Origin: a virus
IMG/VR virus record: IMGVR_UViG_3300025087_002150
Strand: one strand, 5' to 3'
Length of the DNA: 45,063 nt
Shown here in pieces: positions 2,171 to 43,328 of the stretch (positions are counted from its first letter, which is position 1; each line of letters begins with the position of its first letter). A program made the position numbers and the translations under genes. The notes beneath the pieces were generated by a model that worked only from the letters and a program-made list of their open reading frames with translations, was not told where the DNA came from and searched no databases.

Positions 2171-2452
2171 TCATCCTTCCTCTCCGAAAAGCTCTGCTTT
2201 TAGCTCTTTCAATTCTAAAACTCTTCCAGAGATTAATGCTCTGTTCCCTTCTGGAAGTTCTGCTTCTGTTAAGACTTCTTGATGAACACTTACCCTTAAA
2301 TCAACCTTCTCCCTCATCTTTATCAGGTGCGCAAGGTGGCGTTGAGTTGCGTTGAGAGTTCCTTTTTCGAAATCGCCTTCTTTCAATCCCATTTTACCTA
2401 TCATCTTATCTAGCTCCTCGCATTCCTTTTCAAGCTCTTTTATGGTTGTCAT
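2171..2452 (-). CDS. Paralog family A member 1 (MTTIKELEKE...QRHLAHL...ELKAELFGEEG)
   Basis: Start moved to MTTIKE (ATGA overlap with upstream stop); shares three blocks with 2790, 3513 and 38571 ORFs. Confidence 0.75.
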   Translation of the reverse strand: MTTIKELEKECEELDKMIGKMGLKEGDFEKGTLNATQRHLAHLIKMREKVDLRVSVHQEVLTEAELPEGNRALISGRVLELKELKAELFGEEG

Positions 2453-2790
2453 CTCAAGTCCCTCGCCCACCTTACCCCGAGCGCAGAATTCGGGACCAGC
2501 GGATACTTGCTGCAATCGAGGTCAACCCTGATGGAGCAGGCGACGAACCCCGCGACCAGTCCTTTTTCTTTATTCAATCTGAACGGCTGCGCGAAAAAGG
2601 AATCATTCCAGCCAGTGAACATCTTCAACTTTTCTGCATATTTGCTATTAGCTAGCCATACTACTTCGTTTATCCTCTGCATACGCCAGTCTTTAGGCTT
2701 GAGGCGCATGCACTCTTGATAAGTCTTACCTTTATGCAGAACTTCTGCGCTTACTTCTATCTTCAGTTCTGGTATTTTTATTGTTTTCAT
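2449..2790 (-). CDS. Small protein with DGR-target-like (CLec/FGE-type) C-terminus
   Basis: Ends VAGFVACSIRVDLDCSKYPLVPNSALGVRWAR, matching the xFxAxSxxxxLxCxxxPxxSxxxLGVRF pattern of DGR variable regions; start MKTIKIPELK via TAATG overlap. Confidence 0.6.
   Translation of the reverse strand: MKTIKIPELKIEVSAEVLHKGKTYQECMRLKPKDWRMQRINEVVWLANSKYAEKLKMFTGWNDSFFAQPFRLNKEKGLVAGFVACSIRVDLDCSKYPLVPNSALGVRWARDLR
2470..2556 (-). other. Putative DGR variable region (VR)
   Basis: Locally GC-rich; variable positions are NNC/NNT codons (GTC, TGC, ATC, GAC, GAT, AGC, TAT, GTC) derivable from AAC/AAT by A-only changes. Confidence 0.55.
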
Positions 2791-3083
2791 TATTTTTTGC
2801 CTCCTTCCTCTCCGAAAAGCTCTGCTTTTAATTGCAACTTTATTTTTGCACAAGCAATTCTTCTCCAGTTCATCTTTCCCTTGTGCTTTCTCTCTTCTGC
2901 TAAGATTCTTTCTTCAATCCAATCAGCATTTTCGACCTTCTCCCGCATCTCCTTCAGGTGTGCAAGGTGACGCTGAATTACCTTGAGAATTGCCATATCG
3001 ACATCGTCTTTTGTCCAGTGCCCGAAATCTATCTTTTTCTCAAGCTCCTTACATTCCTTCTCAAGTTCTTTTATTGTTGTCAT
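2790..3083 (-). CDS. Paralog family A member 2
   Basis: MTTIKELEKE...QRHLAHLKEMREKV...LKAELFGEEG. Confidence 0.75.
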   Translation of the reverse strand: MTTIKELEKECKELEKKIDFGHWTKDDVDMAILKVIQRHLAHLKEMREKVENADWIEERILAEERKHKGKMNWRRIACAKIKLQLKAELFGEEGGKK

Positions 3084-3117
3084 TTTTTAACTCCGAGATT
3101 ATCTCTTTCTCTTATCT

Positions 3118-3516
3118 TCATCCTTCTACTCCAAAAAGCTTTTTGTTTTTACCAAAATTCTTGAAAGTGTATTTATGGCAGTTTTTGCATAAGGTAATGC
3201 AATTTTCTTTATCAAATTCGAGCTCTGGATGGGATTTGACTGGCTTAATGTGATGCACTTCTAAAGCATAATCGTCCTTTGATTTAAATCCACATTTCTG
3301 ACAGGTAAATTTATCCCTTTCCCTGACTTCTCTTCTCACCACATTCCAGTCTTTTATTGTTGGCTTCACAAATTTTTCGAACACTTCATCAGAACATTCA
3401 TCCGAACAATATTTTTTACGATATTTCGGTAGAGATTTTTGGCAATAAGCACACCTTCCCTTTTCTTTTTGTTTAAAGTCACTCATTTTAAAGCCGATTG
3501 AATATTGTTGTCTCAT
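3118..3516 (-). CDS. HNH endonuclease with N-terminal Zn finger
   Basis: VRERDKFTCQKCG...LEVHHIKP...ENCITLCKNCH; N-terminal CAYC...CSDEC. Confidence 0.9.
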   Translation of the reverse strand: MRQQYSIGFKMSDFKQKEKGRCAYCQKSLPKYRKKYCSDECSDEVFEKFVKPTIKDWNVVRREVRERDKFTCQKCGFKSKDDYALEVHHIKPVKSHPELEFDKENCITLCKNCHKYTFKNFGKNKKLFGVEG

Positions 3517-3773
3517 CCTTCCTCTCCGAAAAGCTCTGCTTTGAGCTCATTTCTAATTTCCTTCCTTATATGCGCTTGCAGTTTAGCATATTTGAATTCA
3601 TGGCATGCGAAGAAAAAATCAATTTTCTTCCGTATCTCCTTCAGGTGCTCGAGGTGGCGCTTTGTTGCTTCTATCTTTCCTACAGCAACCCCAAAATCAT
3701 ATCTTCCAAGCAGTTCCCCCTTTGATTCTTCAAGCCTTTCTACTTCCTTTTCTAAAATATCAATTTCAATCAT
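3513..3773 (-). CDS. Paralog family A member 3
   Basis: MIEIDILEKE...KRHLEHLKEIRKK...ELKAELFGEEG; start inferred from ATGATTGA overlap. Confidence 0.7.
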   Translation of the reverse strand: MIEIDILEKEVERLEESKGELLGRYDFGVAVGKIEATKRHLEHLKEIRKKIDFFFACHEFKYAKLQAHIRKEIRNELKAELFGEEG

Positions 3774-3978
3774 CTCCATGCTCCCCCTTAATCCTATGGC
3801 AGAAACTGCATGACCATTCTGTTTTCCCATCTTTCCCATGTTCAGTAGTTCTTTTCATATCCCCGACATTAATATCAAATAATTTTCTACAGAACACACA
3901 TCTTTTAATATTACAATCACAATCGGATTCCTCTCGATGACAATGATTACAAAATAATTTAACAGTCCATCGGTTCAT
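3766..3978 (-). CDS. Cys-rich Zn-binding protein
   Basis: CNHC..CDC..CVFC..CSFC; paralog of 39544..39798. Confidence 0.7.
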   Translation of the reverse strand: MNRWTVKLFCNHCHREESDCDCNIKRCVFCRKLFDINVGDMKRTTEHGKDGKTEWSCSFCHRIKGEHGDD

Positions 3979-3982
3979 TTTT

Positions 3983-4054
3983 TCATCTTTCCTCTCCGAA
4001 AAGCTCTGCTTTGAGCTCTTCCTTCTTCAACCATCTTACTTCGACATGGGTCAT
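3983..4054 (-). CDS. 23-aa mini-ORF made mostly of the family A C-terminal block
   Basis: MTHVEVRWLKKEELKAELFGEER*, ATGA-coupled to the upstream gene. Confidence 0.45.
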   Translation of the reverse strand: MTHVEVRWLKKEELKAELFGEER

Positions 4055-4434
4055 TTCTCTACCCACCCTAGGTTCTTCAGTGCTACCTTCTCATACTTGA
4101 ATATCTTAGGATGTTCACTATTCTTTATAGGTATGAATGTAACATGATACTTGAATTGCCCAAAAGTGCTCTTGTTTACTAGACCAAAGCTTTCCATCTC
4201 CCTTAGAATCTCATAACCCCTTGAGTAGCTAACTCTAAGGAACTCCGACAAGTCCCTAGCTGACACACTTTGCTCTTTCCTAAATCTTCCCGAACAGAAT
4301 AATATAGTCTGGCAGAAACTCCTCCCACCAAGCCTAGAGTATATTGCTTCCTCTGTGTTCCGCTCCTGTATCTTTTCAAGGAACTTCTTCAACTCCTCAT
4401 CTTCTTTTTCCGAATAGGGCTTTTTTGTTTCCAT
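4051..4434 (-). CDS. Winged-helix DNA-binding protein
   Basis: VSARDLSEFLRVSYSRGYEILREMESFGLV HTH plus wing pattern. Confidence 0.7.
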   Translation of the reverse strand: METKKPYSEKEDEELKKFLEKIQERNTEEAIYSRLGGRSFCQTILFCSGRFRKEQSVSARDLSEFLRVSYSRGYEILREMESFGLVNKSTFGQFKYHVTFIPIKNSEHPKIFKYEKVALKNLGWVEK

Positions 4435-4606
4435 ATTTCCTCGCTTCTATAACTCCTTCTTTAATCAAGATATTGACATATCTCCTGGCAGTGACCTGTG
4501 AAATTTGGAATGCTAGGGCTATGTTGGTTATGTAAGTAATCCCGTTATCTTCCAAGTTCCTAGATAGGATATACTCTTTGATTTTCTCTTTTAATAGGTT
4601 TCTCAT
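4397..4606 (-). CDS. Small winged-helix transcription regulator
   Basis: ITNIALAFQISQVTARRYVNILIKEGVIEARKYGNK. Confidence 0.75.
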   Translation of the reverse strand: MRNLLKEKIKEYILSRNLEDNGITYITNIALAFQISQVTARRYVNILIKEGVIEARKYGNKKALFGKRR

Positions 4607-4812
4607 TTCAACTTAGCCTTTGCCTCCGCCATCTTCTTCTCAAGTTCCTTTATTTCGGTTTGTGCACTTTTCTTTTCTCTGTTAGCTACTATGTATCTAT
4701 TGCAGGCACTCTGAACCAGAGACTGATGATACCTTTTCTCAAGGGAAGTTATCCTCTTCATAATCTCCTTTATCATTCTATTTTCCCTTTCCTTGTCAGT
4801 TAATTTTCTCAT
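4603..4812 (-). CDS. Coiled-coil hypothetical protein
   Basis: Coupled ORF, heptad-like C-terminus. Confidence 0.6.
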   Translation of the reverse strand: MRKLTDKERENRMIKEIMKRITSLEKRYHQSLVQSACNRYIVANREKKSAQTEIKELEKKMAEAKAKLK

Positions 4813-5183
4813 CTTTCTTTACCTCCTTGAAGAATATTTTTAAATAAATCAATAACTTTTGTAAATTTTCCTTGTTTATCTAATACTTCATCTCCCGCCT
4901 CTAAATTTTCAATAGATTTAACTCCCTCTTTAGTAAATATTTTTGTTCCTTCAATCAAACATCGGTCTTTGAAGTATGGGGGAATTAAAGTTCCTTTAAG
5001 AAATCCTTTTTCTCCTATCTTAGTTCTGAAGACTATTGCCCTTTTTCCGCTTCTTTCTATCAGGCTTTCTAAGGTTGTGGTCTTCCCGCTTTCGTGGGCA
5101 AGTCCAGTAACGATTAGATGGGCTGGCGCAATATTAACCTCATCCCCAGTCTTCAATTCATATCCTAACTTTATTTGTTTCAT
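4809..5183 (-). pseudogene. HerA-like P-loop ATPase N-terminus fused to an intein N-terminal fragment (truncated or split)
   Basis: HLIVTGLAHESGKTT Walker A, then CLIEGTKIFTKEGVKSIENLEAGDEVLD (intein block A/N2); stops ~50 aa into the intein. Confidence 0.7.
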
Positions 5184-5245
5184 GCGAAATCCAAGATAGC
5201 CACCTTTATAAACTTTCCATACCTTTATATACCTTTAGATAGTAG
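5184..5245 (-). promoter_or_regulatory. Archaeal BRE-TATA promoter, likely leaderless
   Basis: GAAAG-TTTATAAA (5205-5212) 21 nt upstream of ATG 5183; a second TATATAAA lies just upstream. Confidence 0.65.
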
Positions 5246-5272
5246 TTAATCTTATTATTCTTATTCTTATTC

Positions 5273-5695
5273 TTATTCTTCCGACTTGTAAACTATATAA
5301 TCTGGAGAATTTGGTCCTATCTTATACTCTTCTTTCTTGAGTGCTATCTTCATTCCAGGAATCACTTTCCCATCTTTAATAACATCTCGTAACTTGTTTC
5401 CATCTCTCTCTTCCCCAGGAGTAATTCCATTAATCCTTTCCTTCCCATTATGTAGGGAAAGATTTATCTTCCCATCTAAAGCCTTCCATCCATTTCCAAT
5501 CTTTTCCATTTTCACTCCTCCATCCTCAAATACTTGTTTCTGCCTGAACTTATTGTAAAAGACAAATGCAACCCATTGAATATCCTGAACAGGCTTATGG
5601 ATTTGCACGGGGCAGTCCTGCTTCACCTTCTCCATAAACTCATTTACCTTCTTACACAGCTCTTCTGGATTGCTATCTTTGAATGTTTTTATCAT
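5273..5695 (-). CDS. Hypothetical protein; C-terminal half resembles DUF736-type beta proteins
   Basis: KIGNGW...INLSL...NSPDYIVY pattern; family call is a visual impression only. Confidence 0.55.
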   Translation of the reverse strand: MIKTFKDSNPEELCKKVNEFMEKVKQDCPVQIHKPVQDIQWVAFVFYNKFRQKQVFEDGGVKMEKIGNGWKALDGKINLSLHNGKERINGITPGEERDGNKLRDVIKDGKVIPGMKIALKKEEYKIGPNSPDYIVYKSEE

Positions 5696-5816
5696 TTTTC
5701 AAGTCTATTGTCATTAAATGCTCACGGCAGACAAACACTTTCTTTCCAGAAAGCTCTTTAGTCCCGATAACTACACCCCTAAAACCTTCCAAATCACAAT
5801 AGTAGCAATTTATCAT
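5673..5816 (-). CDS. 47-aa Zn-finger mini-protein (MINCYYC...CREH)
   Basis: Manual translation; ATGA-coupled to 5813..6352. Confidence 0.6.
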   Translation of the reverse strand: MINCYYCDLEGFRGVVIGTKELSGKKVFVCREHLMTIDLKNDKNIQR

Positions 5817-6352
5817 CCTATTTCTTCCCCCCGTAATTCCTGCCCTCTTAATTCGATTTCCAGTTCGATATCCCTCTGCAACGAAGGTCCAATATCAGAA
5901 CTTCTGACTTGCCCCCTCAAAGATTCTAAACTCCTCTCACTTCTAGCTCTACCTACCCTTTCCGAGAATGCTTCTGCCAAGGCTCTCCTTTCCTCCCTTG
6001 TCCCGAATTTCTCCTCTCTAACTTCTCTTATAGCTCTCCTTTCTAAATCAGTTTTCGCTCTCTTTTCAAGTTGGGTAAAATCACTTTCTCGGAAGGTTTT
6101 TTCCTTTATCCTATTTCTAAAGATTATTGCTATTCTTTCTTCGCCTATTTGTCTCTCTGTCTCTCTAATAACTTCCGCTCTCCCTAGAACTTTCGCAACA
6201 GCTCTTCCGTGGGTGGGGGTCTTTTCAAAAGCTCTTACAATCCTCTTTTGCTCCTCGACAATATCTCTTATCGAAGTCGCATTTTCTAGAACAGAATCTA
6301 AATTCATCAATCTTGGATTTAATGTCCAACTAACTAATTTGTCCGTTGCCAT
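5813..6352 (-). CDS. Highly charged helical protein
   Basis: R/E-rich ORF directly downstream of the primase. Confidence 0.65.
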   Translation of the reverse strand: MATDKLVSWTLNPRLMNLDSVLENATSIRDIVEEQKRIVRAFEKTPTHGRAVAKVLGRAEVIRETERQIGEERIAIIFRNRIKEKTFRESDFTQLEKRAKTDLERRAIREVREEKFGTREERRALAEAFSERVGRARSERSLESLRGQVRSSDIGPSLQRDIELEIELRGQELRGEEIG

Positions 6353-7704
6353 TTTTCATAGACTAAACTTTCCTCCCCAATAAGATTCTCTCTTTCCCTC
6401 ACCTGAAAACCAAGCTTCCTCAAAAGGTCAGCGTGAGGGCGAGAATAGATATTATTGTCTTCTCCAGATACGAGGTTTTTTGAGAAAAGAGGCTCCCAGA
6501 CCAGAGCCATCCTAACTCCATCTTTGGTTAGCCAGCCTTCTGTGATTGGAATGCACACTAAATTGTTTTTCTTGAAAGAAAACCTATTTGTAGAATTAGA
6601 ATGTGAATATATCTTATGGAGTCTTCCCTCATCGTGTGCTTTAAGGAATACAACTCCGTACCCATGCCTAGAAAGCATCACATAGGCATTTCCCAAATCA
6701 AACATATTTGAAAGACCAGATATTTCTTCTTCAACTCTTCTCCAGTTGGTTTGCTTTGGATAAGTAAGAAATAGGATGAATCTTTTAGTTGCAGTAATCT
6801 TATTCGTTAGATAAGTAGTTATGGCAGGTTCGCCTAGCCCAGGCGATAATCCTGCCTGCTCTAATGTAGGTGGGCTGGTTTGCCGACCATCATCGCCTCT
6901 GGTTTCTCCCGCAGGAAACCTTCCTCGGCTCAATGGGCTCCCATCAAGGTCTTGATGAGTATGAAGGGAAGCGGATGGACGTTCTTGTGTAGAAGAACTT
7001 TTTGAGGTATGATTTTCCGCTTCCCTATTTGGGCATGTATAAGGCAAGGAATGTTCAGTGCTGCATGCCAACTGATTTGCTCCTTTAGCCTTCTTCAATA
7101 TAAAGTCAGCACTTTTATTTAAATCTTTCGCTTCTAAAAATATAGCTCGATTCCCTGAAGTACCATTTATCGTCAGAGGCAATCTTATAACTCTGAACCT
7201 ATCTTCTGTAATCGGCAGGTCAATAAGTTGAGAAATTTTGCAGTATCTTTTTTCCTCCAAGTATCTCTTTGTTTTTATGGAGTGTTCATACACGATTTCA
7301 AATCCTTTATTACCAGAATAGATTATGTAAGTTGGCTCGCCCAAATCTTGCTTTATTGTGTTTAGAACAAATAATGTCCTCCCTCTTGCTTCATCAAGTT
7401 TCTCTGGAGTTATAGTCTCCCCTTTTTCTAGCTTTGCATCAATGTCAAATATTAAATCTCTGAATAATGAAACGTTCCAGCTACCCGTCTGATTTCCTTT
7501 AACTTGTAGTGGATTAAGCCAGCATGTAACTCCGAACCAGACATGCTTTGGAGAATAAGAAAGTAGAATCTCTCTAAAATCTGTTTTGCTCCTAATTCTC
7601 TTTGGAACATTTATAACTCTTCCATCTTGAAGTTGTAACTTAAACTGCCTCCAACCAGAATGTTTTGGAAGCCATAGCCTTCCTTCTTCATACCCAGAGT
7701 TCAT
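6334..7704 (-). CDS. Archaeo-eukaryotic primase (PriS-like) primase-polymerase with linker and C-terminal domain
   Basis: Motif I LIFDIDA, motif II SGNKGF(E), motif III D..RVIRLPLTIN..SG. Confidence 0.85.
   Translation of the reverse strand: MNSGYEEGRLWLPKHSGWRQFKLQLQDGRVINVPKRIRSKTDFREILLSYSPKHVWFGVTCWLNPLQVKGNQTGSWNVSLFRDLIFDIDAKLEKGETITPEKLDEARGRTLFVLNTIKQDLGEPTYIIYSGNKGFEIVYEHSIKTKRYLEEKRYCKISQLIDLPITEDRFRVIRLPLTINGTSGNRAIFLEAKDLNKSADFILKKAKGANQLACSTEHSLPYTCPNREAENHTSKSSSTQERPSASLHTHQDLDGSPLSRGRFPAGETRGDDGRQTSPPTLEQAGLSPGLGEPAITTYLTNKITATKRFILFLTYPKQTNWRRVEEEISGLSNMFDLGNAYVMLSRHGYGVVFLKAHDEGRLHKIYSHSNSTNRFSFKKNNLVCIPITEGWLTKDGVRMALVWEPLFSKNLVSGEDNNIYSRPHADLLRKLGFQVRERENLIGEESLVYEKWQRTN
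6823..7069. other. Cluster of five stem-loops inside the primase linker
   Basis: Inverted repeats 6823-28/6851-56 plus 6830-35/6841-46; 6901-06/6915-20; 6942-48/6951-57; 6965-75/7016-26 enclosing 6981-86/6993-98; 7032-37/7064-69. Confidence 0.7.
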
Positions 7705-7963
7705 GTTCCTCCCCCGCCATTTTCAATTCACCAGCCTTCTCGGTGTAAGTCGCTTCACCATCACTCGGGATAGTCTTAACAATAGTTAATAAGAGTCTTC
7801 TCTTCTTTTTACTATCAACTCCCCATTTACCATATAACTCTCCCGTGAGCTCTTCTTTCTTAAATCCCACATTCATAAGGTGACGGGAATTTAATGAAAC
7901 CATCCTAGTATTTCCAGGAAATCCCATTTTATTCAATTTAACAAACTCCTTTCTTCCTCCCAT
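7688..7963 (-). CDS. Possible AbrB/SpoVT-like regulator, first gene of the early block
   Basis: VKLNKMG...TRMVSLNSRHL..VGF pattern; sits directly under a TATA promoter. Confidence 0.45.
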   Translation of the reverse strand: MGGRKEFVKLNKMGFPGNTRMVSLNSRHLMNVGFKKEELTGELYGKWGVDSKKKRRLLLTIVKTIPSDGEATYTEKAGELKMAGEEHELWV

Positions 7964-8215
7964 TTTCTATTAAAGAGATGCCAGAAGTATATAAACTTTA
8001 GCATCGGAATAAGAATAACAACAAGAATAAGAATAATCGCTTAGTTATATCGCGAAAGGTTTAAAAAGTCATTAAGCCTATTTTCACCCTCGAGAGTGCA
8101 GTCCTCTGTCATATCCTTTAAGTTAACAGAACCCATGACCCATGACCCATGACCCGAAAGACTTATATAGCCCAACAGCGAATCAAAGACATAATTAAAA
8201 AGCAGCATAATTAAA
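7964..8215. promoter_or_regulatory. Divergent control region with archaeal promoters
   Basis: Minus: AAAG-TTTATATA (7988-7995) 24 nt before ATG 7963. Plus: CGAAAG-AC-TTATATA (8155-8169) and GAAAGGTTTAAAAA. ACCCATG x3 and GAATAA repeats present. Confidence 0.75.
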
Positions 8216-8713
8216 ATGTTTAAGAGGCCAGTAGGACAAATTCAGTCACTTTCATCCCTGTATCTTCTCTATCATCTTGGATTTAGGAACATTTCTCTTA
8301 CTATTTCCTTGAATTCAAACCAGAAAATAGAGTTTGAAGAAAGGATTGGTCTTGAGCCCGGCCAATATAAAATAGATTTTGAAAGGCTTGAAAATTTCCT
8401 TGACAGGGGCAAGCCCATCCTAAATTTAGACATCCTGCGAAATGAGCAAAAGGCAATAGAAGAGATAGTTGAAATAAGTTATTCTGATTTAAAAAAACTT
8501 GGATTTATTCTCACTGCATTAAAACCCCTTGGCTGGGAAAAGGGACGGAGGGTAGTCTATGCTTTATCGAGGCTAGGGACTATTCCCCAATCAAGAATAC
8601 TTCCAGGAATTCCTGATGGGCATATTGTAGAATATGACAGGAACAATAGTAGGGTAAGATTGGTCGGAAAAAATGCTGGACTGGGAGGCACTAGCTCATG
8701 GATAGTAATGTGA
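8216..8713 (+). CDS. Hypothetical protein, first gene of the late block
   Basis: ORF under the plus-strand promoter. Confidence 0.65.
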   Translation: MFKRPVGQIQSLSSLYLLYHLGFRNISLTISLNSNQKIEFEERIGLEPGQYKIDFERLENFLDRGKPILNLDILRNEQKAIEEIVEISYSDLKKLGFILTALKPLGWEKGRRVVYALSRLGTIPQSRILPGIPDGHIVEYDRNNSRVRLVGKNAGLGGTSSWIVM

Positions 8714-10035: not shown

Positions 10036-10262
10036 TAAAGAAATTAACTTCGGGAAAATTGCAAGATATTGAAATTTGGATAAAGATAGTAAAGGCAGGT
10101 AATCGGAGCAATATAAGGAGAACACTCAATAGGCTTGCCTTTCCAGCAGCTTTCTGGTGGACTGACAAAGAATGGTTAGGAGCTTTAGAATTCGAGAAGA
10201 GACAAGAGATTGAGAGGATAACTTTTTTTGATAAATTAAAAGCTAAAAGGAGGAAAAAATGA
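10032..10262 (+). CDS. Small basic hypothetical protein
   Basis: Coupled ORF. Confidence 0.6.
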   Translation: MIKKLTSGKLQDIEIWIKIVKAGNRSNIRRTLNRLAFPAAFWWTDKEWLGALEFEKRQEIERITFFDKLKAKRRKK

Positions 10263-10906: not shown

Positions 10907-11446
10907 ATGGGAGAAGACCAATATAGGCAGTACGATAAGAAGTTCGAGATAGCGACATTCGGTAATGGGGTGTTCGCTACAGTCTTGCATAGGATACCAT
11001 ATCTTAATGAAGAAGGAATTGAAGGAGAGAGGCTAATCATGCGTCCTGGAAAGAAATTGAAATTGAGATATAAACTACAAGACAAAGACCTCGATAGAGA
11101 TGAAACAATTACAAGATGGTATGCCAAGCCACATTTAATTCAAATAGACTCAGATGAGATTCTTGTGATGTGCGGATTTAACGGTGAAACTCCAACACCA
11201 GTAACTGCTTATTTTGGTGATTTATTAAGGGAGGTGATGGAGCTTAGAAAAGATGCTTTATTTTACAAGTTAAGGTGTACTGCATTAGAAGAGGAGCGAT
11301 ATTATCTATCTCTAGACTTTGATGAAAAAATGAGAAGAATAACAGATACTGTGTCTTATGCCATGAAAGTAAGGGGCAGAATGGACGACCCAGTTGGAAG
11401 GCGGACAGTTGGAGTTCAAACAACGGAGGTTCATCCAGAAGAATAA
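10907..11446 (+). CDS. Hypothetical protein
   Basis: ORF in a tight operon. Confidence 0.7.
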   Translation: MGEDQYRQYDKKFEIATFGNGVFATVLHRIPYLNEEGIEGERLIMRPGKKLKLRYKLQDKDLDRDETITRWYAKPHLIQIDSDEILVMCGFNGETPTPVTAYFGDLLREVMELRKDALFYKLRCTALEEERYYLSLDFDEKMRRITDTVSYAMKVRGRMDDPVGRRTVGVQTTEVHPEE

Positions 11447-12800: not shown

Positions 12801-12801
12801 G

Positions 12802-18186: not shown

Positions 18187-18528
18187 ATGGCAAAATTATT
18201 TAGTGGAGGAGATAAAGTACAAGGTTTCATAGCTTTCCTAAGCCTGCTTTTAATTTCATTGCAAATTTTTGCCCTGGTAGCACAATCTTTCGGCTGGCTG
18301 GAAAACATAAGACTTGGTGCTGGATTGATGCTAGTCATAATTGTAGGATTAATCCTCCTTGCTTTCGTAGCTGTTAGGGAGAGAGCATATCTTCAGGGAA
18401 GGGATATATTGATACTTATCTTAGCAGGAGCTTTAATGCTATTTTTGCTGTTTAAGTTACCTCAGCTAGTCCCTTCGATATTTTCACAAGCTATCAGTGA
18501 GCTGCAAAGTATGCTAGGAGTATCTTAG
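18187..18528 (+). CDS. Three-TM membrane protein
   Basis: Hydrophobic ORF. Confidence 0.7.
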   Translation: MAKLFSGGDKVQGFIAFLSLLLISLQIFALVAQSFGWLENIRLGAGLMLVIIVGLILLAFVAVRERAYLQGRDILILILAGALMLFLLFKLPQLVPSIFSQAISELQSMLGVS

Positions 18529-18600
18529 ATGAGCCCAAAAATCCCAATACGACAGCACATGAGCCACAGGGCAGGTCGGAGAGCCCCCGTAGCAGGGCAT
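18505..18600 (+). repeat. 96-bp perfect direct repeat, copy 1
   Basis: Identical to 23037..23132 by direct comparison. Confidence 0.9.
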
Positions 18601-22964: not shown

Positions 22965-23036
22965 GATGAGAAAGAAAAAGCAGAAACCCAAGAAGCAATT
23001 ATATTAAATTGGAGTTATTTTAGGTCATTACCTCTT

Positions 23037-23132
23037 CAAAGTATGCTAGGAGTATCTTAGATGAGCCCAAAAATCCCAATACGACAGCACATGAGCCACA
23101 GGGCAGGTCGGAGAGCCCCCGTAGCAGGGCAT
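23037..23132 (+). repeat. 96-bp perfect direct repeat, copy 2
   Basis: Identical to 18505..18600. Confidence 0.9.
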
Positions 23133-34324: not shown

Positions 34325-34396
34325 CTACTTCTCGCTTTTCTTCAAGTCCCGAACTTTGCGAACTTCCGAACTGCTTATCTCTTTCATTTTATGCTC

Positions 34397-35578: not shown

Positions 35579-35620
35579 CCCCCATTAAGCTTCCTAAGAT
35601 TATTTGCTCTGATATTTTGT

Positions 35621-35905
35621 TCATATCAACCCCCGCCAAGATAGAAAGCGTAGCTTTCCTCTTTTAGTTTCTTGTAGAAATTGCACATTTCCCCTAATTT
35701 TTCCATCTCTATCAATTCTTTTTTTAATATCTTTACTTTGTTCTCCACTAACCGCTACCTTTATACCCTCTTTATTTGTGAGGGTTATGCCCTTCCCGTG
35801 AGGCATAAGCTCATAGTTCTGGAACTCCACTACCTTCTCCTTCCAGAACTTATATTTTAACGAGTTATTACTTCTTACATTCTCATAAATCCCCTCTAAA
35901 TTAAG
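35621..35905 (-). pseudogene. C-terminal motif V and OB-fold of the DNA ligase, behind an in-frame TAA
   Basis: Same frame as 35906..37276; reads LNLEGIYENVRSNNSLKYK...VQFLQETKRGKLRFLSWRGL. Confidence 0.75.
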
Positions 35906-37276
35906 TTAAATTATGCCTTCCCCCCCCTCTCTTTTAAATTCTTCTATCTTACTCAAGTCAACAAAATTCTCCGCAATTTTCACTACTTCATTTTCAAGAA
36001 CGCAAGAATTTAGAATCTTATATCTTTTTTCGTAACTAAATCCTCTTAGATTTCTACTATTGGAATAAATCTCATCAAATAATACTATTTTTGAAGGAAG
36101 CATATTTCTTAATTCCTCAAAACCGCTTTCCGAATGGACACGGCTCTGAATTTTATTAAAATCCCCATCCCTTGAGATTATTTCTCCTATAAAAATTGCA
36201 TCATTCGGGACTATACTTCTAATGATAGATTCAACTATCTCTGGGAATTTCCTTGTTATATCTCTCATTTCTCTATTATATAGTCTAACCTGCCTTCCTG
36301 TAAGCCTTACACAACATAAAATGCCATCATACTTTTGCTGGAATATCCATCTTCCATTTTCTATTAGATTATCTGTTTTATTGCACAGCATAAAGCCTAT
36401 TCTCTGAACATTTAATCTGTGGGAAATCTCGCTATCCTCAATACCAATCTTCTCTTTAAATTCTTTTGAATACGGATGGTCAGCATTTATAATTTCTCTA
36501 TCTATAATGTTCTTACTTTCTATTGTAGTCAGGTATTCTTTAATTCTATCGTCTTTTCTTTTAATAGTTAATATGTTACCGAACAAGAAATACAGCTTTA
36601 AGGCATTTCTATTATAAGTCCTTATAGAAGTAACTCCTTTATTATCATTAGCCTCGTAGAAAACTATTTTAAAATCGGTCAAGATTTTGCGAAGGAGTGA
36701 TAGAACTTTTCTATCTTTATTTGATAAACTAAGACCTAATATGCTCCTATCTCTGTCGTAAGTTACACACCCCTCGCTATCAAACATTCCTCTTAAAAAC
36801 TCAATTCCTTGCATATCATTTGTTAAGTCTAATCCATTAATCTTATCTATAAAAAACTCAACAACCTTCTTTCTACTACACGAATATTTGTATAAATCCT
36901 TCCCCCCAAAAGCGTTTTTGCTCTGGCTTATCCTCCTTATCTTTTCATCTATCTCCACGATACTTTCAAACTCCCTCTTAAATTTCTCTACAAACTCGTA
37001 ATCAGTAGCCATCAAGGCAACTTTATTGATTAATCCATTTTGATGTATAGTTCCATCTCCCATTAAAGTACCAATAACATAAAACAACGATTTTTCATCT
37101 AGTGGATATTTAAAGTGCGTTATCTTCAAATTTTTTAGACCTATTCTTTCCCTCACTTCTTTATTGAATTTACTTATCTTTCCTCTACTCATCAATTCGT
37201 TATACTTCTCAGTAGCGTTTTCTTTCTCTTTCTTACCCTGCATAAATAACCTTCTCTGCATCTGAAATTTTCCCAT
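35906..37276 (-). CDS. LAGLIDADG homing endonuclease fused to an ATP-dependent DNA ligase adenylation domain
   Basis: VIGTLMGDG and FLRGMFDSEG motifs; then QKYDG, LYNRE..DIT.KFPEI, IGEII, VLFDEI, EGII*. Confidence 0.85.
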   Translation of the reverse strand: MGKFQMQRRLFMQGKKEKENATEKYNELMSRGKISKFNKEVRERIGLKNLKITHFKYPLDEKSLFYVIGTLMGDGTIHQNGLINKVALMATDYEFVEKFKREFESIVEIDEKIRRISQSKNAFGGKDLYKYSCSRKKVVEFFIDKINGLDLTNDMQGIEFLRGMFDSEGCVTYDRDRSILGLSLSNKDRKVLSLLRKILTDFKIVFYEANDNKGVTSIRTYNRNALKLYFLFGNILTIKRKDDRIKEYLTTIESKNIIDREIINADHPYSKEFKEKIGIEDSEISHRLNVQRIGFMLCNKTDNLIENGRWIFQQKYDGILCCVRLTGRQVRLYNREMRDITRKFPEIVESIIRSIVPNDAIFIGEIISRDGDFNKIQSRVHSESGFEELRNMLPSKIVLFDEIYSNSRNLRGFSYEKRYKILNSCVLENEVVKIAENFVDLSKIEEFKREGGEGII

Positions 37277-37319
37277 CTTACCCCTATCGCTCCGCTCTTT
37301 TATTCATCACTTTTATTCA

Positions 37320-37442
37320 TCACTTCGCAATAGTTTTAGCACAATTCAAGCAGATAACCCTGCCTCTCCACTTGTATTCCTTGCCTTCCTCTATCGGCTT
37401 CCCGCAGTTCTGGCACATCCTTCCGCATATTGTCCTTTCCAT
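37320..37442 (-). CDS. 40-aa Zn-finger mini-protein (CQNC...CLNC)
   Basis: Manual translation MERTICGRMCQNCGKPIEEG... Confidence 0.6.
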   Translation of the reverse strand: MERTICGRMCQNCGKPIEEGKEYKWRGRVICLNCAKTIAK

Positions 37443-37464
37443 TTTATAGATAGACATACAGATT

Positions 37465-37794
37465 TTACTTTTCTAATAAGCTAACCTTGTTTATCCCATA
37501 TATCTTAATGTTCTTATTCTTCTTCCCCGTATCGTAGATGAATCTTAAATTAAGGAGCAGTCTTTTATATCCATACATAGTAGCAGGAGATACTCCAAAT
37601 TCTTCCGCAATAGCTACTTCAAGTATATTGCTCGGCACTTCATTAACGCATCCCCTATCCTTAACTTTATCTATAACATTAGCAAGTTTTTTGTAGTCCG
37701 CCATCTTATCTCTCTCTATCTTTATCTCTATTTTAGATAGCTTCTCTTTATAAACTCTTCTTCCTTTCATAACCATTTTATCTTTCATCTCCAC
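37465..37794 (-). CDS. Possible winged-helix protein
   Basis: IAEEFGVSPATMYGYKRLL. Confidence 0.55.
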   Translation of the reverse strand: MEMKDKMVMKGRRVYKEKLSKIEIKIERDKMADYKKLANVIDKVKDRGCVNEVPSNILEVAIAEEFGVSPATMYGYKRLLLNLRFIYDTGKKNKNIKIYGINKVSLLEK

Positions 37795-38030
37795 TTAAAA
37801 TCCCTAAAGTCCCAATAAGCATCTCCTCTCAAGAAAATAAACTTGCCTTCTTCAACAACCTCCCATTTACCATTTTCTTCTTTGGTTTCTGTATAACTCG
37901 TAAGGCTCATAGCCCCATTTCTCTCGTAGAAGCCCCTTAGCTCACCCATTACTTTGTGCCCATTCTTGAGAGTTACAACTATTAGCTTACCTATTAACTG
38001 CTTCGTGTTAAGAGATTCCTCTATAACCAT
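37785..38030 (-). CDS. Sm/Lsm-like RNA-binding protein
   Basis: Sm1 IGKLIVVTLKNGHKVMGELRGF...MSL...E; Sm2 GKFIFLRGD. Confidence 0.7.
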   Translation of the reverse strand: MVIEESLNTKQLIGKLIVVTLKNGHKVMGELRGFYERNGAMSLTSYTETKEENGKWEVVEEGKFIFLRGDAYWDFRDFKWR

Positions 38031-38395
38031 TTTTCAATATTCTCCTCAAAATTCTTAGGTTTCTCTATCTGCTTCAAGTCGGAAGCACGAATGACAAATT
38101 GAATATCGCCATCATTATTGTAGGTCTGCCCGAACTTATAGATGTCGGCAAGAGGGATAGTATGATACTCTACCTTATCCTTCTCATTAACATAATGGCA
38201 GACAACACCAACTATATGATATTTTCTTCTTAATTCGGCAAGTAGCTCCTGCGAGATTGCAAAGAAGGAGTGAAAAATCCCGAAGTAATGCTTCTTGTAT
38301 TCCCTTCTTGTGTAATAGACATTCCCCTTTGATGAAGGGAATACCCAACCGACCATCTCTGGTCTGCCATCCAGCTTCCAATAGATTTTATTCAT
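38021..38395 (-). CDS. Hypothetical viral protein
   Basis: Coupled ORF. Confidence 0.65.
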   Translation of the reverse strand: MNKIYWKLDGRPEMVGWVFPSSKGNVYYTRREYKKHYFGIFHSFFAISQELLAELRRKYHIVGVVCHYVNEKDKVEYHTIPLADIYKFGQTYNNDGDIQFVIRASDLKQIEKPKNFEENIEKWL

Positions 38396-38574
38396 CTTTC
38401 CTCCTTCTTCCTAAGATAGTATGTCTTCTGGTATGCCTTATATTTGGCCGTCTTCTGGTATGTCTTCTGGTTTTCCCTATGTCGTTCTCTTTGGCAGTTC
38501 AACTTTCCGCAAGTTTTCTGCCACAGGCTCGGATTCTCTATTTCCTTTTTACAGATTTTGCACTTTTTTTTCAT
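38392..38574 (-). CDS. Zn-finger protein, single-repeat paralog of 1832..2119
   Basis: MKKKCKICKKEIENPSLWQKTCGKLNC...QKTAKYKAYQKTYYLRKK; lies within track ORF 38392..38700. Confidence 0.7.
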   Translation of the reverse strand: MKKKCKICKKEIENPSLWQKTCGKLNCQRERHRENQKTYQKTAKYKAYQKTYYLRKKEER

Positions 38575-38846
38575 CCTTTCTCTCCGAAAAGCTCTTGTTC
38601 TACTATGGCGCAGAATCCAGCGAATCTGCCTTTTTGCTCTGGGTGCGTTTTCATCTGCCTTAGCTTCTCCCGCATCTCCTTCAGGTGGGTGAGGTGGCAC
38701 TGGGTTGCTTTAAGTTCTCCCTGTAACCTGTTAAGCTTACTTTCATAGAGAGTTACATTTATGAAATTTCCCTCTCTTAATCCTATTTTATCTATCTTCT
38801 TTTCAAGCTCCTGTTCTTTCTTCTCAAGTTCTTCAAAGGTAAGCAT
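38571..38846 (-). CDS. Paralog family A member 4
   Basis: EELEKKEQELEKKID...TQCHLTHLKEMREK...ELFGEKG. Confidence 0.75.
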   Translation of the reverse strand: MLTFEELEKKEQELEKKIDKIGLREGNFINVTLYESKLNRLQGELKATQCHLTHLKEMREKLRQMKTHPEQKGRFAGFCAIVEQELFGEKG

Positions 38847-38994
38847 CTTTTATTTCCTCCTCTATTCTTATTCTCCTATATTGATATTCATCCAAATTAT
38901 AAGTTCCAGTTGGATATATACACCGCATTATTCGGCTCATTAACTTTGAGACCTTCTTTTCCTTCTCAAGTTCTTTTATTGTTTTCATTTTCAT
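38833..38994 (-). CDS. 53-aa protein with the family A N-terminal block only
   Basis: MKMKTIKELEKEK then unrelated sequence. Confidence 0.5.
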   Translation of the reverse strand: MKMKTIKELEKEKKVSKLMSRIMRCIYPTGTYNLDEYQYRRIRIEEEIKDAYL

Positions 38995-39086
38995 CTGTTC
39001 TCCCCCTTAACCGCTTTCTCTATACATTCATCGCAGTAAGGAACATCCTTTTCTACTTTTGCTTTCCTGCAAGTTTTACATTTCAT
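38991..39086 (-). CDS. 31-aa Zn-finger mini-protein
   Basis: MKCKTC...YCDEC; coupled at both ends. Confidence 0.55.
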   Translation of the reverse strand: MKCKTCRKAKVEKDVPYCDECIEKAVKGENR

Positions 39087-39190
39087 TCTTCCCCTCCATG
39101 ACACTTACATTTGCAACTTCGCCATCTAGCTTTCAGATTGCCTTTTTTGCAGTCCTTACAATCTCCTCTTCTACATCTGCCTGTTTTCAT
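39083..39190 (-). CDS. 35-aa Cys-rich mini-protein
   Basis: MKTGRCRRGDCKDC...CKCKCHGGEE after the GGAGAGGAAGG motif. Confidence 0.5.
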   Translation of the reverse strand: MKTGRCRRGDCKDCKKGNLKARWRSCKCKCHGGEE

Positions 39191-39437
39191 CCTTCCTCTC
39201 CTCAAGCTCTCGCTTCCTCCCACTCTTCCTCTGATTCTGGCTACCAAGACCAAGAGCAACACCAAAAACAACAGCAACAAGAGCACCAACACCAACGCCA
39301 AAAACAAGAGCAACATCAACGTCAACGCCAATAGCAACACCAACGCCAAAAACAAGAGCACCAGAAATAACAAGAGCACCAAGAGCACCAAGACCAAGAG
39401 CACCACTTTCCGTCTCAAGTTCTTTTATCATTTTCAT
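39171..39437 (-). CDS. Gly/Val/Ala-rich low-complexity membrane protein
   Basis: MKMIKELETE start coupled to the upstream stop; reading frame ambiguous. Confidence 0.45.
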   Translation of the reverse strand: MKMIKELETESGALGLGALGALVISGALVFGVGVAIGVDVDVALVFGVGVGALVAVVFGVALGLGSQNQRKSGRKRELEERKDENRQM

Positions 39438-39543
39438 AATCTTTCTCCCATCCTCTCAAGAGCATCGGCTATCCTCTTAAGCTGTGCGTGTATGTTCAAC
39501 GCTATTGTTTCATCCATATTTTAGTCCGTAACTGCCCTGCGGT

Positions 39544-39798
39544 TCATCCATATTCTCTTCCCTTGTCCAGACAGAAGTCGCAAACGAGTTCATAGTCCTC
39601 GCCATCAACCTTCATCCTGTTCAAGAAGTCAGCTTCAAGATAATCCTCACATAAAGCACACTTATCACAATTACATTCCTTGTCCTCTTTCTTGCAGTAG
39701 CCACATACTATCCTGACCTGCCATCTCTTTCTTACCTCTGCCCTAAATGGCAAGTCATAAAGCTGTTCATATATTTGTTCTTCCATTTTTATCTCCAA
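39544..39798 (-). CDS. Cys-rich Zn-binding protein, paralog of 3766..3978
   Basis: RWQVRIVCGYC..ECNC..CALC..CDFC. Confidence 0.7.
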   Translation of the reverse strand: MEIKMEEQIYEQLYDLPFRAEVRKRWQVRIVCGYCKKEDKECNCDKCALCEDYLEADFLNRMKVDGEDYELVCDFCLDKGREYG

Positions 39799-40125
39799 CT
39801 ACAACAATAACACTTTCCTCACAAACTCCTGCCTTTTCCTCTCTCCCTCTTTTGAAATCTTTAATTTTCTTTTGTTGCCAACACCGACCTGTAAGATATA
39901 CCCCCCCTTAATCAATCCGTTAATAATCCTCGTTGTATACACATATTCTACTTTCAGACAAGAAGATATATACGAAGCAGTTTTATTTTTATCTTCTATC
40001 TGGTGGAGTAATTGAAGTATTCTCCATTCAGTTTTTCTAATTCCTATCTCTTTTTCAAGGTTATCCATTCTACGCTGTTCTTGTAGTAGTAGTTCTATTC
40101 CCTTTATATATTTTTCTCTACCCAT
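39799..40125 (-). CDS. MarR-like winged-helix protein
   Basis: WRILQLL...ASYISS...TRIINGLIKGGYI...KRKLKISKEG. Confidence 0.75.
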   Translation of the reverse strand: MGREKYIKGIELLLQEQRRMDNLEKEIGIRKTEWRILQLLHQIEDKNKTASYISSCLKVEYVYTTRIINGLIKGGYILQVGVGNKRKLKISKEGERKRQEFVRKVLLL

Positions 40126-40512
40126 CTTCCAGCTTATCCAACATTTTCTTCATATCATCTTCTGTATTCTTCAAAACCCACTCTGACTTTTTAATCTGCA
40201 TAGTGAGTATCTTAGCCAGAAATTCCTCGTCTTCTTTGGTCAGTTCTTTCATCTTCTCTCCTTATCTTCAATAATGATACAGATTATAAAGCCAAAAATA
40301 TTGTATGGCTCTCTCTCAAAAAGAAATACGTTATAAGTAATGCGTAGCTAATCAACATATACATTTGACTATTTTTCATCTTCTTCTCCGAACTTCTCTA
40401 AACAAAAATCACAAACCATCTCTGTAGCCCCTTCATCAAATTTAGTCCTCTGCATAAAAGTTAGTTCCATCATTTACCTCACCCATACAAGACTAAGACC
40501 TCTTTATCCTCT

Positions 40513-40734
40513 TTAGTTAGTTCCATCATTCACCTCAAACTCCAGCATCTTTTTTACATCTTCTAATCTAAATCTTAATTGCTCTCTTAAATCAAAAACA
40601 ACAAGTCTTTCCTCTATCTGCTCAAGCAAGGCAAGAATATCGCTTTTCGCCTGTGCTTTATGGTATCTTTCGTATTCTTGTTCCATTTTCAAATTTTCAT
40701 ATAACACTCTGTTCCATAGTTTAATATAATCCAA
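40513..40734 (-). CDS. Hypothetical helical protein
   Basis: Track ORF; start uncertain. Confidence 0.45.
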   Translation of the reverse strand: MDYIKLWNRVLYENLKMEQEYERYHKAQAKSDILALLEQIEERLVVFDLREQLRFRLEDVKKMLEFEVNDGTN

Positions 40735-40808
40735 TCAACAAAAGTATCAATACAACAAAGTGTCCTATCAAAAGGATGGCTTCCCCAGTAGGTAATGTAA
40801 CTCTCATT

Positions 40809-41387
40809 TTATTTTTTCACCATCATCATTTCGGGATTAAATCTCTCTATTTGCTCTTGTGATATTATCATCTTCTCTTGTCTTTTCTCAACAATTAACT
40901 GCTGTGATAAAGTTTCAATACTTCCCCAACCCAATATAAGCATGAGGAAATCACCTTTAGGCACAAGATAGGCTATATAGAATTTATAGCCCCCGTTTGA
41001 AAATAGAAACTCTAATGCTTTGCCTTTTTTAAGTAGGTAATCCTTCAATCTGTTGTTAAGGCACAGGTGATAGCTCTCTGGAATAATATCAAGTGCCTTC
41101 TGCATATCAACTTCTTCATAGCTCTGCACTTCCTTCGTCAGCTTCGCCCTTGCTAGTGGCTTATTATTTACAAGGCGTAGAACCTCGCTGTGTGGCTTCC
41201 CTGCCTCATCTACATAAACATTCCTCAAGCCATCAGAAATAATCGTGCCGTCTTTGAGCATCCTTGCAAACCGCAGGGGCTTACCTTCCTTGCTTACTAT
41301 GGGGTAGCTTTCCCTTAACTTCTCTGGTTGTAATGGCGTATGCAATATCTTATGTTCGCCCACCTGTAATTCTCGCCAGATACTCAT
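40809..41387 (-). CDS. Ku-like (beta-barrel) DNA end-binding protein candidate
   Basis: C-terminal half (EVD...ESYHL...LKDYLLKKGKAL..F.....YIAYLVPKGDFLMLIL) aligns by eye with the prokaryotic Ku core. Confidence 0.45.
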   Translation of the reverse strand: MSIWRELQVGEHKILHTPLQPEKLRESYPIVSKEGKPLRFARMLKDGTIISDGLRNVYVDEAGKPHSEVLRLVNNKPLARAKLTKEVQSYEEVDMQKALDIIPESYHLCLNNRLKDYLLKKGKALEFLFSNGGYKFYIAYLVPKGDFLMLILGWGSIETLSQQLIVEKRQEKMIISQEQIERFNPEMMMVKK

Positions 41388-41767
41388 CTTCCACCACCAT
41401 ATAGATTTTCGTTACATTCTTCCTGATATTTAATACCATCTGGAGTGAGGGTTAATACTCTCTTATTCTTATTCTTAATCTCCCTAACATATCCCTTTAG
41501 CTTTAAGAATGAAATCCTTTTACAAGTAGAGCTGTAATCTCTCTCCATCCTATTTGAGATAAAAATAGCATTTCTATTCTCTTGTCCTACCTGTTTAAGT
41601 ATGGTAAGTATATAGAAGTCCGCCATATTTATCCCTTTCTCTCTTGCTCTTTCCATAAAGTATGGTGGTGGTGGAAGTATATAAATGTTTTGCCTTTTCA
41701 TCTTAATCAAAAGCCACCTCTCCAGCTTCCGCCTGAACGAGCATCCCGTTAAACTCCCTCTCATCAA
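41384..41767 (-). CDS. MarR-like winged-helix protein, paralog of 39799..40125
   Basis: FYILTIL...AIFISNR...KRISFLKLKGYV...KRVLTLTPDG. Confidence 0.75.
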   Translation of the reverse strand: MMRGSLTGCSFRRKLERWLLIKMKRQNIYILPPPPYFMERAREKGINMADFYILTILKQVGQENRNAIFISNRMERDYSSTCKRISFLKLKGYVREIKNKNKRVLTLTPDGIKYQEECNENLYGGGR

Positions 41768-41981
41768 TATAGATAAGACTTTCTCTCAAGCTCTCTATCC
41801 TCTCATTCTTCTCGTTAAGCTCCTCAACCAGCAAGTCAGAAATCAATCTGTGCAGGTCGGTAGGCAACTTAGCATACTGAAATCCCGCAATAAAATCTAA
41901 AATCTCCCTTCTTTCAGCTTCCAAGTCAGCTCTCGCTACTTCTAAAATTTTCTTATTGTCTTGCATTTTCTCATACCTCAA
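41703..41981 (-). CDS. Coiled-coil hypothetical protein
   Basis: Track ORF; SD GAGGT upstream. Confidence 0.55.
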   Translation of the reverse strand: MRYEKMQDNKKILEVARADLEAERREILDFIAGFQYAKLPTDLHRLISDLLVEELNEKNERIESLRESLIYIDEREFNGMLVQAEAGEVAFD

Positions 41982-42108
41982 AAATGTTTTATATTAAAGA
42001 TTATGAACTATTTAAATCTTTTCTTTTCAACAGATTCTATCTCCCCGCCTTTGTCTTACTTCCCATTTCCCATATCCTGCGTGAAATAATTTCGCCTTCG
42101 CCATTTTT

Positions 42109-42264
42109 TCACCTTCTTTTTGTTTTATGTTTCTTTCTATATTCCTTACAAGAAGGATATAAATCCTCCATATCGTGATTCTCTATGAACTTTTCAATAG
42201 CTTCGTCTTTAGTTTCCGCTTCTATAATTTGATTCACATTAACTGAACAAATGTATTTTTTCAT
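42109..42264 (-). CDS. 51-aa hypothetical protein (MKKYICSVNV...EAETKDEAIEK)
   Basis: Manual translation. Confidence 0.55.
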   Translation of the reverse strand: MKKYICSVNVNQIIEAETKDEAIEKFIENHDMEDLYPSCKEYRKKHKTKRR

Positions 42265-42310
42265 TTTTCGCTTTTTCTTATCAATCCATTTCTAATTTTT
42301 TTATTTCTAT

Positions 42311-42547
42311 TTATCTGTTATGGTCATTCTCGAATATCCAATCTCCTGTTCTTTTCTTCCGTGAAGAAGTAGCCAACCCCTTCTTTTCCAGAATAGCCCA
42401 AGTAGTTTTCCCAGTTCTTATATAGTATCTCGCCATCTCGTAGCACTTCCCACATAGCCCTCGTGTCTTCGTCTTCTTTTCCTTGCATTTAGGATTTAAG
42501 CAGACCATTTGATGACTCCTTCCCATATCAACCTTTTGTTCTTTCAT
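42311..42547 (-). CDS. Zn-finger protein
   Basis: CLNPKC...RGLCGKCY. Confidence 0.7.
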   Translation of the reverse strand: MKEQKVDMGRSHQMVCLNPKCKEKKTKTRGLCGKCYEMARYYIRTGKTTWAILEKKGLATSSRKKRTGDWIFENDHNR

Positions 42548-42851
42548 CTTCTACTCCCCTAATAATTATCTTCACAGGCTCTTGTATATCTGAGGCTAAG
42601 TTCGTCATAAGATGCCTCTCTACAAGCCCCAAGATGTTCTCTAGCCTATCCCCATCGGCTGATTTAAAGATAGTGCCGACTTCTATAATCCCGCCTTCAA
42701 TAGCAGTTTCAGTAGTTACGAGAGCTTCCCAGCTCTTCGCTTCATCCTCGTATCTCTTCTTAAGTTCCCTTAGCCTAGCTGTTTCCATTTTGATTTTTGT
42801 CCAATCCTCCACCAGCTCCTTACAGCTATCGGTGACTGCCTCCCATAGCAT
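42528..42851 (-). CDS. Coiled-coil hypothetical protein
   Basis: Track ORF. Confidence 0.6.
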   Translation of the reverse strand: MLWEAVTDSCKELVEDWTKIKMETARLRELKKRYEDEAKSWEALVTTETAIEGGIIEVGTIFKSADGDRLENILGLVERHLMTNLASDIQEPVKIIIRGVEDERTKG

Positions 42852-43034
42852 AATCTCTCATATTCCTTTGCTAACTTTGGATTGATACATTCTAGTGTTC
42901 TTATTATCCCTCGCACTCCTTAAACTTTTTGCAATCACAATGTACTCCACGACAAGGTTCTGTGTTTCTATCGATATATTTATGAGTGAATAGACTATGT
43001 CTACATATACATTTATTTCTTCCCGATTTATCTT

Positions 43035-43328
43035 TCATCCTTCCTCTCCGAAACTTTCTTGGAAAACCCTTTGGTAGTATTCTAAAGTTTCTTCGTTTGG
43101 ATTATAGCTTCTCGTTTCAAACCCTTTAATTCCAGACGTCTGGATATTTGGAAAGGGAAAAGTCAAACAGATTTCTCCCTGTGCTTGTTTCTTAACGACA
43201 TAATCTACAGCTTGTTTATAAGAAAGGCTTCCGTAAGTAAATGTCCTTATTCCGTCTTTAAAACTTACAACACATAACCCTCTGTACTTTATCTCGTTAT
43301 ATTCTAGTAAAGTTAATTTATTTATCAT
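43035..43328 (-). CDS. Hypothetical protein ending in the FGEEG junction motif
   Basis: Body unrelated to family A, same 3' motif. Confidence 0.65.
   Translation of the reverse strand: MINKLTLLEYNEIKYRGLCVVSFKDGIRTFTYGSLSYKQAVDYVVKKQAQGEICLTFPFPNIQTSGIKGFETRSYNPNEETLEYYQRVFQESFGEEG

Follow-up and report, generated by a model that had tools for sequence, protein, structure and literature searches.

A near-identical coding motif at stop/start gene junctions of a groundwater virus-like element, and its possible part in gene shuffling

In the two minus-strand arms of an uncultivated virus-like element from aquifer groundwater, a short motif recurs almost letter for letter where one gene ends and the next begins. 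The stretch analysed, hereafter the window, is the 45,063 nt of IMG/VR record IMGVR_UViG_3300025087_002150; its arms cover about 1–8 kb and 34–45 kb, with a plus-strand block between them, and the element is probably archaeal-virus-like. The explanation that we prefer, and to which we give an even chance, is that the motif is a translational-coupling cassette embedded in coding sequence, whose copies are kept alike by selection together with short-tract recombination among neighbouring paralogs, and which has sometimes served as a crossover point. The 5' two-thirds of the motif is the conserved C-terminal coding end of a protein family, called here family A; at the 3' third, a ribosome finishing the upstream gene would pass on to the following one, in most cases a small zinc-ribbon gene. 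Neighbouring copies would owe their letter-for-letter identity to short-tract recombination or gene conversion, perhaps aided by selection acting on the mRNA. Now and then, crossovers or deletions at the motif and at a second conserved block at gene starts (the 5' block) would have joined different gene bodies while leaving the coupling intact. Because it is repeated, the cassette would act like other repeated viral regulatory cassettes.

A recurring motif at stop/start junctions

Four exact minus-strand copies of a 24-mer were found (2177–2200, 2805–2828, 3519–3542 and 3989–4012), none being expected from 100 shuffles, which bears out the recurring near-identical motif described in the first-pass annotation of this DNA. 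Extended to 36 nt, the motif has at most one mismatch at 2171–2206, 3513–3548 and 3983–4018, six mismatches at 2799–2834 and nine at 38571–38606 (Table 1). Translated from the minus strand, they give ...KAELFGEEG* or near variants at the copies. A purine-rich run resembling a Shine-Dalgarno (SD) sequence lies inside the upstream open reading frame (ORF), so that SD and stop/start overlap occur together, and at seven copies the TGA of this ORF overlaps the next ATG as ATGA. The A2 copy (2799) is the exception, and the earlier claim that the motif supplies the SD and the ATGA of the next gene in most copies holds for all the others. Six of the seven genes downstream of the motif are small and Cys-rich. 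The ATGA of copy 4 opens a 3-codon mini-ORF overlapping the start of a 70-aa zinc-finger gene.

The 3' third of the motif, GGAGAGGAAGGATGA, contains the SD and the stop/start overlap. Allowing at most two mismatches, the 3' 15-mer of the motif was found at 10 places (0.21 expected), each of them a gene start on the minus strand of the arms, and never in the plus-strand block. The 3' part of the motif is an arm-specific SD-plus-start consensus, imposing G/E-rich C-termini on the upstream genes. Judged from its sequence and position, this third would serve translational coupling. On the gene strand, no promoter-like or terminator-like site was found at the motif copies.

Table 1. Motif copies, conserved blocks and associated genes of the window. 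Positions are those of the whole window.
Feature	Position	Strand	Description
Purine-rich block and second SD/ATGA	2116..2160	-	Upstream of zinc-finger gene 1832-2119
A1	2171..2452	-	Family A, 93 aa
Motif copy 1	2171..2206	-	Last 11 codons of A1, then SD and ATGA starting a 26-aa ORF
A2	2790..3083	-	Family A, 97 aa
Motif copy 2 (A2)	2799..2834	-	24-nt core exact; instead of ATGA, three added codons, then TAATG overlapping the 113-aa gene
5' block	3054..3083	-	Start codon and nine codons (A2)
HNH endonuclease gene	3118..3516	-	Between A3 and A2
Degenerate copy	3118..3140	-	HNH gene tail, 20/23 bases; ATGA opens a 13-codon ORF overlapping the A2 start
A3	3513..3839	-	Family A, 86-108 aa by choice of start
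Motif copy 3 (A3)	3513..3548	-	Reference 36-mer; ATGA opens the HNH gene
Motif copy 4	3983..4018	-	End of the 23-codon putative relic ORF (3983-4054)
A4	38571..38846	-	Family A, 91 aa
Diverged copy	38571..38606	-	End of A4; ATGA opens a 60-aa zinc-finger gene, paralog of 1832-2119
Newly found copy	39187..39213	-	Small indel, other frame, in the tail of an 88-aa membrane-protein gene; ATG opens a 35-aa Cys-rich gene
Rejected copy	40369..40473	-	34-aa ORF; its tail aligns with C-termini of the zinc-finger family to which it belongs
21-nt tract identical to copy 1	43035..43055	-	End of an unrelated 97-aa ORF (43035-43328); ATGA opens a 44-aa Cys-rich gene

Three of the perfect copies end full family-A genes (A1, A2 and A3) and the fourth ends the ORF 3983–4054, whose 23 codons do not exceed the length of an A-type N-terminal block joined straight to the tail and which is therefore read as a relic of the family. 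A1 to A4 are paralogs of 86–108 aa, 40–47% identical. Family A is a small helical ORFan family, tandemly amplified in an accessory arm: it matched no Pfam or PHROG family, its neighbours in the ESM Atlas were uninformative helical proteins, and searches of 5.8 and 1.8 billion proteins returned a single outside homolog, P0005, present in the same aquifer on two contigs of 2.4 kb. In the region 2094–4066, family-A genes alternate with single unrelated genes, all in one orientation, and the HNH endonuclease is the sole product there with a known family in Pfam and PHROG scans.

According to the first-pass annotation the motif caps unrelated gene bodies. This does not describe the perfect copies, which belong to three paralogs and a relic; motif-type sequence is nevertheless present on bodies outside family A, namely the HNH gene, the 97-aa ORF and the 88-aa membrane-protein gene at 39187. 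The degenerate copies listed earlier at 3118, 38571 and 43035 were retained. The one at 40376 was dropped: it is weak, and its tail aligns with the native C-termini of two further proteins from the zinc-finger family to which it belongs. No such tail as that at 3118 is carried by any of 12 homologs of the HNH protein, and from this comparison the tail looks non-native. The window protein also lacks the His that follows CH, just before the tail, a residue kept in 11 of the 12 homologs, and may be inactive. An 88-aa variant of the HNH protein proved to be a contig-end artefact.

Conserved gene borders, synonymous-site identity and a change of partner

A conserved block is also present at gene starts. 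DNA nearly identical to the 5' block of A2 opens A1 (2423–2452), a 53-aa ORF (38959–38994), a membrane-protein gene (39405–39437) and the homolog on an outside contig, L017, so that the blocks previously noted at 2452, 3083, 38994 and 39437 are all present; with a 6-nt insert it opens the 113-aa gene as well (2762–2790). One tract of 25 nt is identical in 3054–3078 and 38959–38992. Downstream of A1, copy 1 and the SD/ATGA of 2116–2160 form 14-nt direct repeats around a 55-nt segment, which encodes most of the 26-aa ORF and is absent at the paralogous junction between A4 and its zinc-finger gene. The purine block of this segment recurs in another reading frame at 39210–39241 (31/32 bases against L017). 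In a 14-mer census, 74% of the arm positions lying in repeated 14-mers were no more than 30 nt from a start codon, where 18% would be expected. In both the alignment and the census, gene borders carried short conserved DNA that was flanked on one side or both by unrelated DNA.

Codon choice separates the tail of family A from its body. Where the bodies share an amino acid the same codon is used in about 58% of cases, close to what codon usage predicts (0.2–0.6 per residue), against 9/10 in the tail. The five codons that lie outside the SD are the same in three additional copies (P about 2e-7), and the ELFG codons match in A4 and the L017 homolog (P about 2e-4). The identity of the motif DNA is far beyond what amino-acid conservation explains, contrary to the second of the two outcomes that the first-pass annotation named as refuting its proposal. 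The relationships of bodies and tails are also incongruent. The body of A1 shares 43% amino-acid identity with that of A4 and 28–29% with those of A2 and A3, whereas its tail is the same as in the neighbouring A2, A3 and relic ORF and differs from that of A4; the 12–21 bases upstream of the core are identical among neighbouring copies only, and not in A4 or L017. Identical tracts amid saturated synonymous divergence, with such incongruence, are marks of gene conversion. The letter-perfect neighbouring copies need more than selection at the protein level, the candidates being short-tract gene conversion or recombination, selection at the RNA level on the initiation region, or both.

The only outside relative is L017, a contig of 2.4 kb, which makes the following comparison a single case. 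Its positions 1563–1690 match A4 (82%) and 1666–1751 match DNA lying downstream of A1 (89.5%); the motif is the only stretch covered by both, and the closest partner thus changes exactly there. At the 5' end of the L017 gene, the best match is A2. Looking up the further proteins of L017 returned the same two contigs and nothing else. Homology therefore breaks at the motif in this one comparison, and the mosaic, together with several footprints, suggests that crossovers at the motif have occurred. The motif may have been a preferred crossover site, with gene conversion acting on its neighbouring copies, and the pattern is what ordinary short-homology recombination, or gene conversion, at a repeated regulatory sequence could leave.

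Population structure, rival explanations and neighbouring features

A number of observations weigh against this explanation. More than 60 independent contigs that include A1, A2 or A4, built from many samples by several assemblers, showed the same gene order, near-identical sequence and no rearrangement at any motif copy. The only structural polymorphism among them was the copy number of a 51-bp in-frame tandem repeat in the zinc-finger gene 1832–2119, whose product has 95 aa, 78 aa or fewer depending on the sample. Mapping the Logan contigs of four runs to positions 1–8000 gave three joints, all with short sides (21–30 nt) and none credible: two are due to cross-mapping of 39-kb and family-A paralogs at 80% likeness, and the third (1912 to 3978) is not at any motif copy. 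Stretches of this range left uncovered by the contigs carry no weight as evidence. Since the perfect copies belong to paralogs of one family, their recurrence is mostly paralogy plus a common ribosome-binding site. Random recombination followed by selection would likewise leave breakpoints at gene borders, and selection on translation initiation alone could keep the bases constant. The outside evidence comes from a single relative on a 2.4-kb contig, and L017 may even come from an unassembled part of the same genome; a contig reaching 2 kb beyond the left end of the window carries a homolog of its 195-aa gene. No integrase or recombinase was detected by Pfam and PHROG scans among about 50 window proteins, a result that applies to the window only because the genome is incomplete: another assembly (L001 12450–14506) reaches 2 kb past the left end and does not close on the right end, so that the element exceeds 47 kb. 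The earlier proposal of gene swapping at the motif draws on the excess DNA identity, the partner switch of L017, the repeat-flanked 55-nt segment and the motif on bodies outside family A, and is countered by the stability of the more than 60 contigs; a switch at the motif is seen in L017 and in none of these.

Searches further afield yielded few relatives. Exact and degenerate motif scans gave no match in IMG/VR, 15 single chance matches in JGI metagenome contigs, all lacking both the upstream GAG and a family-A body, and 26 single chance matches in GTDB genomes, in unrelated bacteria. Through the packaging-type ATPase no relative was found in IMG/VR or among GenBank phages; one relative with 55% identity lies on a 4.7-kb contig, too short to include the arm.

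Selection might suffice without any recombination, the 36-mer, the purine block and the 5' block together forming a cis-acting translation-initiation element. This is a serious rival, though we consider it unlikely to be the whole account. Such an element, under purifying selection on the mRNA, could be a hairpin masking the SD and opened by the upstream ribosome, or an operator bound by a translational repressor of the T4 RegA kind. This account would agree with the position of every copy at a stop/start overlap, with a 3' half that is the SD consensus throughout the arms, with the preservation of the bases in a different reading frame at 39187, with the nature of the downstream genes, all but one small and Cys-rich, and with a structurally invariant population; a CUUUUC/GGAAGG hairpin is also what minimum-energy folding predicts for the contexts of A2 and A4. 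However, the RNA folds of the copies were no better than those of shuffled sequence (z -2.0 to +1.8), and no hairpin is common to all copies, the two that were seen being confined to some of them. The 12–21 bases that only neighbours share upstream of the core do not follow from it either, and it leaves the L017 mosaic and the non-native HNH tail unexplained. The common C-terminal peptide LFGEEG might instead be what is selected, for example for docking to a partner, with DNA identity as a by-product. All of family A has this peptide unchanged, and the tails of the HNH protein and the 97-aa ORF resemble it. Its synonymous codons, on the other hand, are identical far above the level of codon usage, the same bases stand in another frame at 39187, and HNH homologs elsewhere do without the peptide, so that this idea is already disfavoured and we regard it as extremely unlikely.

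A more active role of the motif was the most far-reaching proposal of the first-pass annotation, which saw an integron-like array lacking an integrase. As a dedicated capture system, with the motif as the site at which whole genes are actively swapped, it would agree with the one-directional alternation of A-family and unrelated single genes at 2094–4066, with a relic (3983–4054) that is hardly more than two boundary blocks, and with the partner switch of L017 at the motif. But nothing speaks for a dedicated machine as such: the proteins scanned include no integrase or recombinase, no attC-like palindrome was found (only a stem of 5–6 bp in three copies), the cassettes do not vary across samples, and the motif was found in no other element of the viral, metagenome and genome collections. 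We therefore give this form of the idea little credence. A related form, in which the stop/SD/start cassette and the N-terminal block act as recombination handles for in-frame capture, deletion and reordering of coupled single genes, possibly helped by the element's own ligase and primase-polymerase, would make it a recombinase-free integron analogue of an archaeal virus, driven by homology or microhomology; it seems to us improbable, if a little less so. Break repair may also be considered. Free-standing homing endonucleases cause local gene conversion, and if the neighbouring free-standing HNH protein recognised or cut the motif, repair of the breaks from another copy would homogenise the copies by co-conversion. 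The HNH gene does start in the ATGA of copy 3 and end in a degenerate copy. Its target is only postulated, though, the conserved His is lost from its last motif so that it may be inactive, and copies 36–40 kb distant retain the core too, which makes this mechanism very improbable.

Further conserved tracts and neighbouring genes were noted in the window. Within family A, the central block (2937–2960, 38664–38687 and 3634–3647) holds 24 nt that are identical in A2 and A4, with one change in L017; the identity includes six-fold-degenerate Leu and Arg codons, and the block forms a second patch conserved at the DNA level, inside the genes. A GC-rich segment of 85 nt (2473–2557) at the 3' end of the 113-aa gene 2449–2790 was matched, alone, by short contigs in all four runs, with a depth of about 9–58x against 2–5x for the element; these contigs differ from it at about 10 positions (2504–2525) and then continue into dissimilar sequence, and the segment is also present in something commoner in the community. 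On the plus strand, a 99-nt direct repeat (18502–18600 and 23034–23132, 99% identical) spans a junction: it takes in the last part of one gene together with the opening 24 codons of two paralogous basic proteins, and encloses 4.5 kb of surface-protein genes. A 46-nt repeat (41950–41995 and 44944–44989, 85% identical, 29–35 nt exact) reaches from just upstream into the starts of two unrelated genes and is probably a reused promoter/leader cassette. The window opens inside a repetitive Gly/Leu/Trp membrane-protein gene (1–447). Other genes include a P-loop ATPase N-terminus leading into a truncated Hint (intein) start (4809–5183) and an ATP-dependent DNA ligase with a LAGLIDADG domain (35906–37276). 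A Ku-like reading of 40809–41387 was abandoned, the product having no Pfam or PHROG match.

Comparison with known systems

How viruses exchange small accessory genes is debated between random illegitimate recombination followed by selection and exchange at short conserved sequences. If the motif is a crossover site, repeated regulatory cassettes drive modular shuffling beyond T4-like phages too, and such a cassette can sit in coding sequence, where each exchange automatically keeps the translational coupling. If it is not, the element offers a clear case of a ribosome-binding site dictating upstream C-termini and producing look-alike tails in unrelated genes.

A close parallel is with the PeSLs of T4-type phages, short near-identical regulatory repeats that separate small ORFans where the viral genome is plastic (Arbiol et al. 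2010, PMC2839356; Comeau et al. 2014, PMC4122927). In both cases the copies flank small ORFans in a plastic region, and recombination from copy to copy is proposed to shuffle single genes. PeSLs, however, are intergenic promoter-plus-terminator units, whereas the present motif lies inside coding sequence, made up of C-terminal codons, SD and stop/start overlap, and has neither promoter nor terminator. Recombination products of PeSLs, including mini-circles, have been demonstrated (PMC2839356, PMC4122927); here the record consists of one mosaic (L017) and one repeat-flanked indel, with no joints in contigs. The linker idea of Susskind and Botstein for lambdoid phages, as summarised in PMC3029335, places short conserved boundary DNA between non-homologous segments. 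The motif resembles such boundaries in being conserved DNA at gene borders where homology switches, in the single case of L017. It differs from them in that the lambdoid boundaries come from the comparison of many genomes and ours from one small relative, and in that the conserved DNA doubles as a ribosome-binding site.

Integron cassettes likewise form one-directional arrays of small, mostly promoterless genes with a recurring separator. Integrons nevertheless have IntI, attC and attI/Pc, none of which was found in the window, and in this element the repeat is coding and the cassette content invariant, so that the comparison fails the defining tests of an integron. As in ordinary translational coupling through a stop/start overlap (ATGA), the SD inside the upstream gene constrains its C-terminal residues, at every copy but one; at ordinary coupling sites, in contrast, synonymous positions vary and stretches of 21–36 nt are not identical, whereas this motif is identical across genes. 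The remaining likeness is to the concerted evolution, or gene conversion, of tandem paralogs, which leaves identical tracts in otherwise saturated paralogs, strongest between neighbours. Compared with the usual cases, the tract in this element is very short (30–36 nt) and coincides with a regulatory site.

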